A stretch of DNA of 64,000 nucleotides from Eledone cirrhosa. Taxonomy: Eukaryota. The translations under genes and the position numbers were made by a program. The number at the start of each line of letters is the position of its first letter. Position 1 is the first letter of the stretch. The stretch spans positions 285,076,001 to 285,140,000 of the forward strand of contig OZ024740.1 in NCBI GenBank assembly GCA_964016885.1, written 5' to 3'. Below are positions 17,011 through 59,609 of the stretch, one piece after another. The notes beneath the pieces were generated by a model. That model had not been told where the DNA came from. It made no database searches and saw nothing but the letters and a program-made list of their open reading frames with translations.

Positions 17011-17654
17011 CTAAAACAGAATAAAAAAAGGTAAAACATTGTTGTCTCTGATGAGGACAAAGCAAGAGTGTATTTGAATACATATAAAAATGAGAATTCT
17101 CATCACTAGAACAGCCGTCTTCTAGCGATGAATTTTCTCACTTTTATATGTATAAAATAAAAAAATCATTGCAACATATAATGTGTAAAAATATTCATGT
17201 ATTCATGTATATATATAAATAAAGTATAATTATCGGAAGAAATAAAACACTTTATGACTTGGATAAGAAAATGTAATAATAAAACATTGTTTATAATTTG
17301 AATCTAGAGCTTTCATCTTTTGTGAGACTTATCACGTCCTAACACCCCACCCACATCCTAACAACCCGCCCTTTATCCATTTCCCTACATCCACAACCAG
17401 ATAAGTTCCCCACCCTAGATCGCCAATCTGCACATCCCACACCCCATCCTCCAGTCCACACTGTAAATGTGGTTGGTGTTAGGAAGGGTCTCCTGCTGTA
17501 GAAACCAAGCCAGAAACAGTTGTGTATGAGCAAGACATAGTCAGCTGATCCGGCTTGTCTCACAACGGAACAACTCATTTAACCAATGCTAGCATGGAAA
17601 AATGGACGTGAAATGGTGATGATGTTGATTATGATGATATATATGTCTTGCAGT

Positions 17655-18240
17655 CTATAATAGAAAAGTTTAAGACTGGTTGTCCATGGGAACTTTCATA
17701 TGTTGACGATTAGACCCTCATTACCGAATCTATGACAAAATTAGAAAAGAAATTTCATATATGGGGGTGTAGCTTGGAAACAAAAGGCCTTAAAGTTAAC
17801 TTGGCAAAGACAAAATCTTAGTAAGTAGAAAGGAAAACAGGGCCCTGATCCCGCCAGGGAAAAGGCCCTCCTCATTGTGCAGGAAAGAAGTAGGTAGAAA
17901 CTCCATCCTGTGTCCCAAATGCAAATTATGGGTACACAAAAGATGTAGCGATAACTCAGGCAGGCTCACAAACAACATAGATTTCATATGCAGACATTGC
18001 ACAGGGGCAGTAAGCAAAAATCCACAGGAAACAAGTTCTTATAAATGCACAGAGGACTCTGTAGAACTAGTTGGCAGTTTCTGCAACCTGGGAAGCCAAA
18101 TCACCAGTGGAGGTGGGAGCTCAGAAAATACAGTTGCTAGAGAAATGATGGGATGAAAACAGTTGAGAAAGTTGCTGCTACTACAAGAAATCTCTCCCTC
18201 AAGCTAAAAGTTAAGTTGTTTGATGTGCAAACAGCAATGC
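17655..18240 (+). mobile_element. RTE-clade LINE internal fragment (RT end plus C-rich insertion)
   Basis: Decayed CPWEL.YVDD, GLKVNLAKTK, C..CRKEVGRNSILCPKCKLWVHKRCS, VGSFCNLGS. Confidence 0.75.
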
Positions 18241-20181
18241 AACATACAACATAAGCTGACAACCCAGTCAGCCCACACCATATGTGTGGTCTGTGCTTAT
18301 GAAGGGCATCCAGTAGCTGCAAAAACCATGATGGTAATACCCAGCTCCACACTGTAAACATGGTTGGTGTTAGAAATGGGCATCCAACTGTAAAAATCAT
18401 AGCCAAAATATGATTTTGTTGTGTGCAAGGCACAATGTGGCAAACTTGCCAGACTTACCGCATAACAAGATTATCCACCCCTCCTTCATTCCCACACTGT
18501 GGTTGAGGCTTAGGAAGGGCATCCAGCAGTCATAAAAACCCAGCCAAAATGCTGTCCCGCTATGAGGAGGGTATCGTGTGGCCAACTAACCAGAATTGCC
18601 TCATAACAGGACCACCCAGCTCCATGCTGTAAACTTGGTTGGTGCTATGAAGGGCATCCAGCAACCATAAAAACTCAGCTAAAACATGGTCCTTCTTGGA
18701 GCAAGGCACAATGTAGCCAACTGGCCAGACCTCCCTCATAACGAGGCCACCCAGCTCTCAAAATATTGTTCTGCTATGAGCAAGGGTATGAAGCAGCCAA
18801 CTCGCCAGACCCTGCCCCTTAACAGAACCATCCAGTTCCACACTGTAAATGTGGTTGAGGCTTAGGAAAGGCATATATCAGTCGTAAAAATCCAGTCAAA
18901 ACATAGTCTTGCTATGAGCAAGGTATGGCATGGCCAACTGGCAAGACTTCCTCATAACAGGAGCACCTATCTCCCAAAATACTGTTCCACTATGAGCAAG
19001 GTATGGTGTGGCCAACTAGCCAGACTTGTTTTATAATGGGACAACCTAGTTTCACACTGTAAACAAGCGTGGTTGGTGTTAAGAAGGGCATCCAAAAACT
19101 ATAAAAACCCAACCAAAACACAGTCCCGCTGTCTGCAAAGAACAGCGTAGCCAACTGACCAGACATCCCTCATAACAGGACCACCTACCTCCCAAAATAC
19201 TGTTCCACTATGAGCAAGGTATGGTGTGGTCAACTGGCCAGATTTGCCTCATAATGATACCACCCAGTTCTACACTGTAAACACTGTAAGTGTGGTTGGT
19301 ACTCGGAAGGGCATCCAGAGACTGTAAAAGCCCAACCAAAATACAGTCCCGTTATGAGCAAGGTATTGCACGGCCAACTAGCCAGACGTCCCTCATAATG
19401 AGACTACCTAGCTCCCAAAATACAGTTCCGCTATGAGCAGAGGACAGTGTGGCCAACTGGCCAGACCCTCCTCATAATGGGACCACCCAGTTCCACAACG
19501 TGAACGTAGTTAGTGTTAGGAAGGGCACCCATTAACTGTCGGATCGGCAAAGGAGCTGCAGTTTTCCAGTGGATGCATCCAGTCTGATTGTCTTCATGCA
19601 TCAGCACCAGGATCAAGATGCGCCTGTACGAGATCATTGTGCTGCCGACAGTGCTTTACGCAAGCGAAACCTGGAAGAGCACAGCAAAGATAGAGAGAGA
19701 CAGCTGAGCGCTTTAAACCAGCAGTGCCTGCGAATTATCCTTCATGTGTCCTGGCACGACCGAATGAAAAACGAGGAAATCCTGCGGAGAGCTGAGTTGT
19801 GGACGTTGCAGAGGATTGTCACGGAGCACTGGTGTTGCCTGGCTGGCCATATTCTGCGCTTGCCCAACAAACGACCCTCGAAAACAGCAATGAACTGGAC
19901 TCCACAGGGTATGTCTTGCTAATAAGTGTTTTTACGGAGGTACCTGGTCTTTCTACTATCTTAATATTGAGTTTATGTTTATTGAGTTTATGTTTATTTC
20001 TTATTGGCAACATGACCCTCCCAAAGTATAACAATATCGGTTTCAACACACGATTTCAGATAAAGAATCTTGCTAAACAAATTCAGAAACGAAATATATA
20101 TATATAATTTATATATTAATATAAGCAAGTATTGCACTAAGAAAAATAAAACGTCGGTGTGAAGAGATTATGGATTTATTT

Positions 20182-20291
20182 GCTTTGACATGTTTCTGTG
20201 TCTATTATAAATTGTCTACATATGCTGACTACAATATATATTGTTCAATCATATGCAATACTTAATTATTTATTACACTTCATCAGAAAAC
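20182..20291 (-). ncRNA. Type I hammerhead ribozyme with long helix II insertion
   Basis: GTTTT-CTGATGA-A-GTGT(~73 nt partly self-paired)ACAC-A-GAAAC(AT)GTC^AAAGC followed by AAATAAA. Confidence 0.7.
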
Positions 20292-57587: not shown

Positions 57588-57788
57588 CAAGCCGATGTTT
57601 GACATAAACCCACAAGTCAGCAATGTTCAGACACTGGAGTGCGTGCAGGACGGTTTCATTGCCCTACACGCATCTCAGATAGGCCCGGCTGATGGCACTT
57701 CCATGCCTGTAGAGTTTATCCCCAACTGGCAAACTTCTCGGTAGCACTGCCAGGCCAGGGATTTCTGGAAGTTGTCCATGGGCCCCAA
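57588..57788 (-). mobile_element. L1/Tx1-type LINE fragment (zf-RVT region)
   Basis: Minus strand reads SLPVGDKLYRHGSAISRAYLRCV*GNETVLHALQCLNIADLWVYVK, a decayed LP..D.L....C..C...ET..H...C...W zinc-knuckle motif. Confidence 0.65.
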
Positions 57789-58070
57789 ATAATAATAATA
57801 ATAATAAAATTATTGTGTACAGTGCTCAGGTGCACTACAACTCATCAAAGGTGCATGTATAGTACATAGAATAATGTACAAATGCTAGGAAAGTGAACAG
57901 TGTATGAGTCATGATATACATGTATGCGTGTGTATGGAGGGGAGATATTAGGTGTAGTGATGGTGAATTTCAGGAAGCATGGAGGTTTTAAAGGATGCAG
58001 TGTCTCGGCAGCTAACAACTGATGCAGATTGTTTGTTCCATGCTTCAGCAACTCTGAACATGAAAAGATG
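57789..58070 (-). mobile_element. CR1-like LINE 3' end with (ATT)n tail
   Basis: Minus strand RVAEAWNKQSASVVSCRDTASFKTSML resembles the CR1 ORF2 C-terminus (RV...WN.LP..VV......FK), followed by a 3' UTR and a triplet tail. Confidence 0.6.
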
Positions 58071-59544
58071 TTTCTTTCTTCTATTTTCTTACTGGTTTTA
58101 GTCATTAGTCCATGGCCATGTTGAGGCACTTTCTATTTGACTATTATTATGGGGTACACACATTTCAAAATTTCCCATTCCCAATGCTTCCTAAGTCAAC
58201 TACTTTGTTTATATATATATATAATGGAGGCACATGGCTTAGTGGTTAGAGCATTGGCCTTGCAATCGAAAGGTTGTGAGTTCAATTCTCAGACCGGGTG
58301 ATGTGTTGTTTCCTTGAGCAAGACACTTTATTTCACATTGCTCCAGTTTACTCAGCTGTAGAAATGAGATGATAGGGACTGGGGTCCATATCATTCCACT
58401 GCAAAGTGGTCGTGGAGGTGCCACGGCAAAAAAGCACCCAGCACTCACTGTAAATGAGGTTGGTGTTAGGAAGGGCATCCAGCTGTAGAAATCAAGCCAG
58501 AATCAGTTCCCGTCCCACCCTTGCAAGCAGGGAAAAAGCGGACGTAAAATGAAATGAAATGATATATATATATATGACTTCTACAGGACTAGAAAGGCTT
58601 CATTCATATGACCATACCAGGACTTTCCTGATTTCATATGAATGAAACAATTCTAGTCCTATACTCTACCAACTTATTGAGTACTTTTTGGTCACCTCCC
58701 AATAACAATAATTATACATATGCATGCAAACATGGTCCTGTAACTCCTATATGTATGTATGTTCTGGTTTTATAATAGAGAGAGTCAGTTTCTAACATAG
58801 ATTCAAGACTCTCTCATTGTATGTATATATGTATGCATGTATGAATGCGTGTGTGTGTGTATATATATATATATATATATATATATATATATATATATGT
58901 ATATCATGACTCATACACTGTTCACTTTCCTAATATATATATATCATCATCACCGTTTTACGTCCGTTCTTCCACGCTAGCATGGGTTAGACGGGTTGTC
59001 CTGTTGTGTGCAGTGTCTGGTCGGCTGACCATGCCTTGCTCATACAGGAACTGATCTGGCTTGATTTCTACAGCTGGATGCCCTTCCTAACACCAACCTC
59101 ATTTACAGTGAGTGCTGGGTGCTTTTTCGTGGCGCCTACACGTCCACTTTACAGTGTGGGCTGGCTGCTTTTTTGCCGTGGCACCTCCACGACTACCTTG
59201 CGGTGGGGGGTGTGGGGGCATATTGTCTATATGCTTCAGCTTGTACCCATGGGAGGTCGGGTACTCTGTATTACTGCGTGACGCCAGAAGTCACGGTCGT
59301 GTGTCATTGTCTTTGAGAGGTGTAATTGGGTAAGGTCGGCTTTTATCACCTCATCCCAGGTCATCTTGGGTCTCCCCACTCCGCGGTTTCCATCAACTTC
59401 TAGTGCTCTGCACCTTTTTATGCAGCTGTCATCCTTCATACGCATCACATGTCCATACCAGCGCAACCGCCTCTCCTGCACACAGCATTATATATATATA
59501 TATACAATATTAACAAATGGAAACTATATTTATAAAACCATATC

Positions 59545-59609
59545 TATTTTATTATACATATTTCAAGGATACCATGTTAAATGATGGTATGCTTTCATCA
59601 GACAAAATA
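59545..59609 (-). ncRNA. Type I hammerhead ribozyme, AUA cleavage triplet
   Basis: TATTTTGT-CTGATGA-AAG-C-ATACCAT(CATTTAAC)ATGGTAT-C-CTT-GAAAT(ATGT)ATA^ATAAAATA: 8-bp helix I with one G-U pair. Confidence 0.75.

Follow-up and report, generated by a model that had tools for sequence, protein, structure and literature searches.

Hammerhead ribozymes of dispersed, probably Penelope-derived repeats in the long introns of a BtpA-like gene of Eledone cirrhosa

The mammalian CPEB3 ribozyme and the amniote hammerheads HH9 and HH10 are intronic ribozymes that occur in few copies and are deeply conserved. CPEB3 has a measured effect, and fast intronic ribozymes are described as impairing splicing while slow ones do not (PMC10919898). 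The 64,000-nucleotide stretch of Eledone cirrhosa DNA analysed here (the window) contains hammerheads that resemble these three, as far as the sources used describe them, in their sense orientation within a long intron, in their position some kilobases upstream of an acceptor, and in having an HH9-like fold. Unlike them, the Eledone motifs are multi-copy, drifting and present in both orientations, and they score 20-32 bits against HH9, whose cut-off is 52. Of the traits of a regulatory ribozyme, the sense position within an intron is therefore present, while single or few copies outside a mobile family are not.

Two groups of mobile hammerheads are closer. Animal non-LTR retrozymes, as described in parts of PMC7229834 and bioRxiv 10.64898/2026.07.22.740005, are short units that carry a type I hammerhead and code for no protein, tandem or solo, low in GC, of many families, often intronic and found in genomes that also have Penelope-like elements; all of this holds for the Eledone elements. 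The differences are that units of about 430-490 nt (469 nt in one family, 429 to about 490 nt in family A) lie at or slightly beyond the upper end of the published range (150-450 bp), and that RNA expression and circles are reported for the published retrozymes, whereas the Eledone elements are known here from DNA. The hammerheads of Penelope-like pseudo-LTRs, in the accounts of PMC4209133 and PMC8557442, resemble those of the window in their short, palindromic helix III, in an unpaired nucleotide that several families have at the base of helix II, in forming pairs on opposite strands 50-400 bp apart, in the presence of a truncated, inverted copy next to tandem ones and in their insertion at (TA)n; the window insertions differ in having no ORF. 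No description of cephalopod retrozymes was found in the literature searched; the supplements of PMC4209133 and PMC7229834 give more invertebrate hammerheads, among which cephalopods may figure.

The host gene and its hammerheads

The host is a BtpA/F13E9.13-like gene with six coding exons and an intact frame of 274 codons (Table 1). Its minus-strand position, already given by a first-pass annotation of this DNA, is borne out by a match to Pfam BtpA (PF03437) on 16811-17137 (E 5e-11) and by tblastn with the Octopus bimaculoides protein P0001, to which the gene model is identical at 244 of 274 residues. That annotation had recognized exon 4 and overlooked exon 5; the motif with its core at 20286 remains in the last intron. 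It had found no exon upstream of exon 4 before 64000, correctly, since exon 3 lies 121.7 kb upstream and not at 35-42 kb. Intron 3 contains five of the six minus-strand hammerheads listed earlier. A PDB search for BtpA relatives gave none at E < 0.1. An Atlas search returned BtpA clusters scoring 0.80-0.86, which are a lead only.

Because Rfam at its gathering score matched no family in the window, a custom type I hammerhead descriptor was used on 264 kb, with shuffled sequences as control. It gave 23 matches, against one in 12 shuffles (mean 0.08). Since it is blind to U3 variants, A4 variants and forms with a very short helix II, its counts are floors. The motifs have the CUGANGA and GAAA core, the NUH cut site and the three helices of type I hammerheads, with helix I open, and a helix III of only 1-3 bp.

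All six minus-strand motifs listed earlier pass the descriptor and are intronic (cores at 20286, 42101, 51731, 53348, 53817 and 59601, by which they are named below); one more sense motif, the seventh, has its core at 48990 opposite an inverted partner at 49047 and had been overlooked. The cores of the stand-alone plus-strand motifs are indeed variants, as had been stated, but in two of the three the variant is the family norm. The motif at 23174 belongs to a family with 18,457 exact copies, and A at position 4 occurs in 96 of the first 100 copies listed, so its core does not reflect local decay; the same holds for 41844, since CCGA is present in four of the four relatives shown. The core of 43223 is likely decayed, since its one sampled relative carries CUGAUGA. 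Local inactivation of antisense copies was thus rejected for 41844 and 23174 and is possible for 43223. No match for the U4A hammerhead variant was found in the literature searched. Intact plus-strand cores at 49047, 51903 and 54106 had also escaped the earlier survey; they are the inverted arms of insertions that hold sense copies. Beyond the window, the same gene contains stand-alone antisense motifs with intact cores. The CUGAUGA matches at 42353 and 48750 were discarded as truncated remnants of family copies that lack a complete stem I.

Table 1. Coding exons and hammerhead-bearing features of the BtpA-like gene (window positions unless prefixed; C1, contig of the window; C1779, a separate contig)
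Feature	Position	Strand	Description and basis
Coding exon 6 (last, carries stop)	16811-17010	-	Pfam PF03437; tblastn to P0001 aa 209-274; AG acceptor
Type I hammerhead, last intron	20180-20293	-	Long helix II; 1-bp helix III; palindromic CAUG loop; predicted cut after 20187
Hammerhead-like motif	23174-23224	+ (antisense)	CAGAAGA core; long helix III; by eye, missed by descriptor
Coding exon 5	26498-26625	-	tblastn to P0001; AG/GT borders, in frame
Coding exon 4	34853-35003	-	tblastn to P0001; frame and splice borders
Intron 3, 3′ part	35004-64000	-	Full intron 121,732 nt
Hammerhead	41844-41890	+ (antisense)	CCGAUGA core; descriptor
Type I hammerhead, stand-alone, sense	42016-42108	-	2-bp helix III and tetraloop; predicted cut after 42023
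Hammerhead	43223-43333	+ (antisense)	UUGAUGA core; by eye, missed by descriptor
Head-to-head inverted hammerhead pair	48932-49106	Minus core 48990, plus core 49047	3-bp helix III; predicted cut site 48939; descriptor, folding
Family A insertion	51468-52166	Both	Inverted arms 51468-51781 and 51853-52166 (95%); sense hammerhead 51694-51738, antisense core 51903; 1-bp helix III, CUAG loop; predicted cut site 51701
Probable retrozyme insertion, apparently young	53019-54365		Between (TA)n tracts; two tandem 469-nt units with minus-strand hammerheads 53311-53355 and 53780-53824; inverted partial copy 53977-54365, plus core 54106
Type I hammerhead, stand-alone, sense	59545-59609	-	2-bp helix III (weak, U-A); near-palindromic loop; predicted cut after 59553
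Coding exon 3	C1:285232736-285232922		tblastn to P0001; frame and splice borders
Coding exon 2	C1:285261490-285261572		tblastn to P0001; frame and splice borders
Coding exon 1	C1779:19699-19774		tblastn to P0001; frame and splice borders

Repeat families and their probable origin

Every motif in the window was assigned to a dispersed multi-copy repeat family, and at least five dispersed non-coding families supply its type I hammerheads. The 469-nt family has 4,081 exact cores genome-wide and family A has 24,076, with none for the reversed-pattern control in either case. Elsewhere in the genome the 469-nt family forms tandem arrays of up to 31 units, and since these copies are 98-99% identical, the insertion of this element in the window appears to be recent. 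Family A is also found in tandem arrays elsewhere, while the families of 20286, 42101 and 59601 were seen solely as single copies or in inverted form. Two of these, the 20286 and 42101 families, are older: the former, dispersed, has 39 other places at 84-92% identity (of 1048 candidates) and the latter 39 other full-length places at 84-88%, and three of seven and two of seven aligned relatives, respectively, are still recognized by the descriptor at the corresponding position. The 20286 hammerhead is without two nucleotides of loop 3 that all seven aligned relatives have. The 59601 motif has 20 relatives in the 1.53 Mb sampled. Three sequencing runs of one sample, whose reads cover intronic DNA, yielded no usable evidence for an empty allele at 48800-53050.

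The insertions are likely Penelope-derived non-LTR retrozymes. In the 469-nt family and family A each unit of a dispersed tandem repeat carries a hammerhead; the 469-nt unit is low in GC (36%), and the frames scanned over 51.9-53.9 kb have no Pfam match, as befits a non-coding element. The arrangement of tandem copies with an inverted truncated copy at a microsatellite target is that described for Penelope-like derivatives in PMC8557442. Below the cut-off, the HH9 model (RF02275) aligns at 31.8 bits with 53296-53366, 53765-53835 and 54088-54158 and at 20.4 bits with 51678-51749; the alignment runs full-length (E 8.6e-07). Because the extended helix I aligns along the whole of this model, families A and B look canonical and not minimal.

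The genome has Penelope-like ORFs with a C-terminal GIY-YIG domain (10,597 first-look candidates), and in five copies of one such family a minimal hammerhead follows 354-408 nt past the stop codon. A sense descriptor match was found downstream of none of the 30 top GIY-YIG loci, and neither these nor 20 long-ORF loci (150 scored) have a clear pseudo-LTR shared with the window families. Family matches near Penelope ORFs resembled separate nested insertions, and other autonomous Penelope-like families carry different hammerheads. The insertions were probably made by a Penelope-like reverse transcriptase and GIY-YIG nuclease that acted in trans.

Predicted cleavage in the pre-mRNA

The hammerheads of these dispersed repeats, likely Penelope-derived non-LTR retrozymes, occupy both strands of the very long introns of this gene, whose frame is intact, and they probably ride there without a host function. 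Since they belong to many-copy mobile repeats inserted in both orientations, they are likely to be ordinary passengers and not elements of gene control. As the sense motifs are intronic, any transcription of the gene would necessarily carry the host polymerase across them, and this part of the first-pass interpretation fits the published model in which such read-through supplies retrozyme RNA (PMC7761336). In Xenopus, 42-44% of the retrozyme copies lie in introns (bioRxiv 10.64898/2026.07.22.740005).

In tandem arrays the hammerheads would pair via the palindromic helix III and cut the read-through RNA into unit-length pieces, which could be circularized, to the benefit of the element. Most copies inside the BtpA-like pre-mRNA are predicted to cut slowly or never: single copies with a one-pair helix III would have no dimer partner, and head-to-head copies would meet their own antisense arm first and form long double-stranded RNA. 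On these predictions, the host likely splices across the motifs with little loss. In folding models, which leave out tertiary contacts and RNA-binding proteins, four of the seven sense motifs in the window are preceded in the transcript by an inverted self-copy with which they are predicted to pair, as 48990 is with its arm at 49047. Four of the seven have a one-base-pair helix III, a form described in PMC7229834 as weak in the monomer. In PMC4209133 a single minimal motif gave no detectable cleavage, and opposite-strand pairs lie 100-700 bp apart.

It is unlikely, though compatible with the passenger reading, that this locus really supplies retrozyme RNA, with a tandem pair releasing a 469-nt or 429-nt unit that is circularized and may retrotranspose. 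The tandem pair at 53311 and 53780 is the only one in the window that could release a monomer, and its unit, which would span 53787 to 53318, belongs to the young family with long arrays. The predicted cost of its double hammerhead is +5.9 kcal/mol, but the 389-nt perfect inverted arm that precedes it in the transcript raises this to +75.6 kcal/mol and, in the models, always ties up one or the other copy. A family A pair further upstream (C1:285245867/285246296, 429 nt apart) has no inverted arm; its first copy, however, is 5′-truncated and the fold costs +11.6 kcal/mol. The long arrays elsewhere would be better sources.

Rather improbable is the reading that unshielded copies (42018, 59545 and more upstream) cut the nascent pre-mRNA fast and lower its splicing or yield, whether this is a burden or a co-opted control of the CPEB3 type. 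Of the gene's 14 sense motifs, nine are not covered by an inverted arm. Among them, 42018 and 59545 (cores 42101 and 59601) have the two-pair helix III that PMC7229834 gives as typical of invertebrates, where retrozyme hammerheads can cleave as single copies at about 0.8 per min (coral) or 0.1 per min (mussel). The 42101 motif, which in isolation needs +1.3 kcal/mol to reach the monomer fold, is the best candidate for real monomeric cleavage. The 7.0 kb from it to the exon 4 acceptor correspond to about 2 min at the mammalian transcription rate of 3.5-4.1 kb/min (PMC10919898), and by hand calculation, with rates from other species, roughly 18-80% of transcripts would be cut. Against this, stem I of both motifs is predicted to form with a probability of at most 0.04 when at least 60 nt of upstream sequence are included, the families are multi-copy and drifting, the HH9 scores are far under the cut-off, the host frame is intact, and sense motifs are neither depleted nor enriched in the 19 genes compared. 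An effect of 42018 and 59545 on splicing or yield is possible.

Orientation, density and genome-wide load

The gene has 14 sense and eight antisense motifs (p 0.29), and 18 myosin gene spans have 14 sense and 22 antisense (p 0.24), after three single-exon-hit myosin loci and one 2-kb span were left out. The myosin motifs come from only six of the 18 spans; one span of 314 kb is based on two exon hits, and one of its five motifs is probably a false match. Over all 19 genes there are 28 sense and 30 antisense motifs (p 0.90), a small test with a 95% interval of 0.35-0.62 for the sense share, and a sense bias as a sign of function is rejected. Clusters of a single orientation are 13 sense and 11 antisense overall (seven and three in the gene alone, p 0.34). 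In mixed clusters the antisense arm is transcribed before the sense copy in seven of seven cases in the myosin spans and four of five in the BtpA-like gene.

Motif density in the gene (22 in 186.7 kb) matches that of random genome samples (35 in 399.6 kb, p 0.32), although insertion clusters are denser in it than in the myosin spans (15 in 186.7 kb versus 21 in 829.6 kb, p 0.002). Without a strand bias, at background density and with every motif in a mobile family, the special regulatory arrangement implied earlier, sense-biased or like that of CPEB3 and HH9, is not supported; intronic retrozyme hammerheads are expected at such a density, and the single locus is ordinary.

About 88 motifs per Mb in the random samples correspond to roughly 250,000 in the 3.0-Gb genome (bootstrap 127,000-434,000). 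This estimated load exceeds the counts given for coral (>6,000), mussel (about 5,000) and axolotl (126,247) in the accounts available. With a gene annotation, the Eledone genome would strongly test any cost that natural intronic self-cleavage imposes on its host. Quite improbable is the reading that, given such a load and no purge of sense copies from introns, a large share of long pre-mRNAs carry potential self-cut sites and a subset of the hammerheads really cuts nascent RNA and sets the yield of genes such as the BtpA-like one; the head-to-head inverted arm would then act as a safety catch, forming long double-stranded RNA that is likely an ADAR substrate and whose editing could release the ribozyme. 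Chance matches in AT-rich repetitive DNA might be suspected from the absence of Rfam matches at the gathering score and from the three matches in 10 shuffles of a descriptor widened for helix II, but this reading is refuted, and its probability negligible, given the shuffle control of the descriptor used, the full-length HH9 alignment, exact core copies in thousands genome-wide and a palindromic helix III that recurs across unrelated families.

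Host gene and hammerhead motifs

The locus, at G000:C1:285076001-285140000 in a genome of 3.0 Gb, is an ordinary one for that genome and holds likely passenger retrozyme insertions that are predicted to be mostly weak or shielded. The Pfam BtpA match lies in a minus-strand frame at window positions 16811-17137, and among the proteins found P0001 ('F13E9.13, mitochondrial', Octopus bimaculoides, 274 aa) is the closest. Three exons emerged from a genome-wide family search, including one 92.7 kb past the window end, and the coding exons were placed by tblastn and a motif scan that covered the window and the 200 kb beyond it. 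The 825-nt coding frame of this BtpA/F13E9.13-like gene has no internal stop, shares 244 of 274 residues with P0001 and shows GT-AG at all five junctions. Exon 1 may belong upstream of exon 2, in a run of 200 N (G000:C1:285279496-285279695). At 121,732 nt, the intron upstream of 35003 takes in all five upstream motifs, which are thus intronic, and the 5' exons do not lie at 35-42 kb. The first-pass annotation was right in observing motifs sense within introns of a minus-strand gene, a position that the exon map now establishes. The acceptor of exon 5 (window 26626-26645) has a tract rich in A and poor in pyrimidines, and skipping of this 128-nt exon would shift the frame.

Rfam gave no match over the window at the gathering score. 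With a type I hammerhead descriptor, 264 kb yielded 23 matches, versus one in 12 dinucleotide-keeping shuffles. This descriptor recovers all six minus-strand motifs listed earlier (20182, 42018, 51695, 53311, 53780 and 59545, with cores at 20286, 42101, 51731, 53348, 53817 and 59601), together with a seventh minus-strand motif (48990) and four on the plus strand (41848, 49047, 51903 and 54106); variant motifs at 43223 and 23174 were identified by eye. The tally for the window is seven sense and four antisense motifs by descriptor, or seven and six with the two variants. Hammerhead_HH9 (RF02275) gives full-length alignments below the cut-off, both to the 469-nt family in its three copies (31.8 bits) and to 51678-51749 (20.4 bits).

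Features of the host gene and repeats (C1, contig of the window; C1779, separate contig; G000, assembly)
Feature	Position	Strand	Basis or remark
Coding exon	window 16811-17010	-	tblastn/motif scan
Coding exon 5	window 26498-26625	-	tblastn/motif scan
Coding exon	window 34853-35003	-	tblastn/motif scan
Coding exon	C1:285232736-285232922	-	tblastn/motif scan
Coding exon 2	C1:285261490-285261572	-	tblastn/motif scan
Coding exon 1	G000:C1779:19699-19774		unplaced 57.7-kb contig
Tandem sense pair, family A (L004-L005)	G000:C1:285245867 and 285246296	-	429 nt apart
Reverse transcriptase fragment	2062-2625	+	Pfam RVT_1, E 1.8e-15
Reverse transcriptase fragment	56166-57227	+	Pfam RVT_1, E 1e-4
300-bp repeat	48028-48327, 54600-54899, 58226-58525, 62495-62775 (+), 22100-22390		96-100% identity

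Repeat families and their mobilisation

The motifs belong to mobile repeats, and every family examined has copies elsewhere. At 53019-54365, flanked by (TA)n tracts, the insertion combines two 469-nt units in tandem with an inverted copy of 389 nt. Elsewhere this unit forms tandem arrays at 98-99% identity (40 scored of 832 candidates), and exact matches to its core number 4,081 (1,997 forward, 2,084 reverse; control 0), in arrays of up to 31. The core of the 51695 family (family A) occurs 24,076 times. For the 20182 and the 42018 motif, 39 further places each, full-length or nearly so, match at 84-92% identity (40 candidates scored for each), and the 59545 motif has 20 relatives within the 1.53 Mb sampled. 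A 2-nt loss in loop 3 sets the 20182 copy apart from all seven aligned relatives. The variant cores at 41844 and 23174 characterise their families: the 23174-23224 (+) family, with a hammerhead fold and a long helix III, has 18,457 exact copies, and 96 of the first 100 listed carry CAGAAGA (A at position 4). Some inversion junctions spell CUGAAGA at the joint itself. The family A pair in intron 2 has no inverted arm, its first copy is truncated just before stem I, and it is the best candidate in the gene for release of unit-length RNA.

These elements fit non-LTR retrozymes, which a 2026 preprint (10.64898/2026.07.22.740005) derives from Penelope pseudo-LTRs and, in Xenopus, finds 42-44% intronic. 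Host polymerase read-through as the source of retrozyme RNA is already proposed in PMC7761336. The window elements resemble HH9-type hammerheads in fold and, unlike regulatory intronic ribozymes, are not few-copy; PMC10919898, which gives the case of the CPEB3 intronic ribozyme, cites impaired splicing for fast intronic ribozymes only. A literature search at listing level found no description of octopus or cephalopod hammerheads or retrozymes.

First-look GIY-YIG candidates number 10,597 genome-wide (150 scored), with the domain at the end of long ORFs, one of which lies between direct repeats of about 1.15 kb. Sequence motifs, together with the layout in PMC8557442, suggest that these ORFs belong to Penelope-like clades. 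In five copies of one family, a short motif resembling a hammerhead, with a palindromic loop, lies 354-408 nt past the stop. Among the GIY-YIG loci examined no autonomous partner of the window families was found, so we infer their mobilisation in trans. A young Penelope-like family (loci L106, L107, L111-L113 and L119) has direct terminal repeats, ORFs of up to 938 codons and, in its repeat, a UUGAAGA core-like motif outside the descriptor.

The two RVT_1 fragments are likely decayed LINEs, and the 300-bp repeat, with its tRNA-like 5' part (28 bits), is likely a young tRNA-derived SINE. A perfect 37-bp hairpin repeat (window 52914-52995; related copy near 22480-22580) adjoins the 469-nt insertion and has very high summed depth in DNA sequencing runs.

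Density and orientation

Forty 10-kb stretches at fixed positions (399.6 kb) hold 35 motifs, and the BtpA-family gene holds 22 in 186.7 kb (p 0.32). Bootstrapping gives 127,000-434,000 type I hammerheads of many families genome-wide (median 255,000), a floor because core variants are missed. Orientation is 14 sense to 8 antisense in the gene (p 0.29) and 14 to 22 across 18 myosin gene spans (829.6 kb in all) whose strand is known (p 0.24), or 28 to 30 pooled; single-orientation clusters are 7:3 and 6:8, respectively. Clusters per base are more frequent in the BtpA-family gene than in the myosin spans (p 0.002), which counts against the passenger reading. Motif density in the myosin spans is half that of random stretches (p 0.02), and the gap is in line with selection that acts generally against insertions in genes that are more compact, rather than with a strand effect, in a small test where 12 of 18 spans are motif-free.

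Predicted folding and cleavage

Because mixed insertions are laid out head to head, the antisense arm is transcribed first, as in all seven cases in the myosin spans and four of five in the BtpA-family gene, the fifth being two unrelated neighbours. In thermodynamic models without tertiary contacts, the cores at 48990, 51731, 53348 and 53817 are predicted to be fully paired with 800 nt of upstream context. In the 469-nt insertion the arm is predicted to pair off just one of the two copies at once, and forcing the double hammerhead is predicted to cost +75.6 kcal/mol when the arm is present, against +5.9 in its absence. Helix III has one pair and a palindromic tetraloop at 20286, 51731, 53348 and 53817, two pairs and a tetraloop at 42101 and 59601, and three pairs at 48990. 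PMC7229834 reports that the axolotl one-pair type cleaves poorly as a monomer and that single copies cleave at 0.8 per min (coral) and 0.1 per min (mussel); in PMC4209133, cleavage of a single minimal motif is not found and opposite-strand pairs are described. Taken together, the pairing predictions, helix III types and published cleavage leave 42018 and 59545 as the real candidates for cleavage, although their stem I is predicted at <=0.04 with 60 nt of upstream context.

A-to-I editing is high in cephalopods. The head-to-head insertions at 48932-49106, 51468-52166, 53089-54365 and 42250-42454 form near-perfect intronic hairpins of 100-390 bp, which are likely substrates for it.
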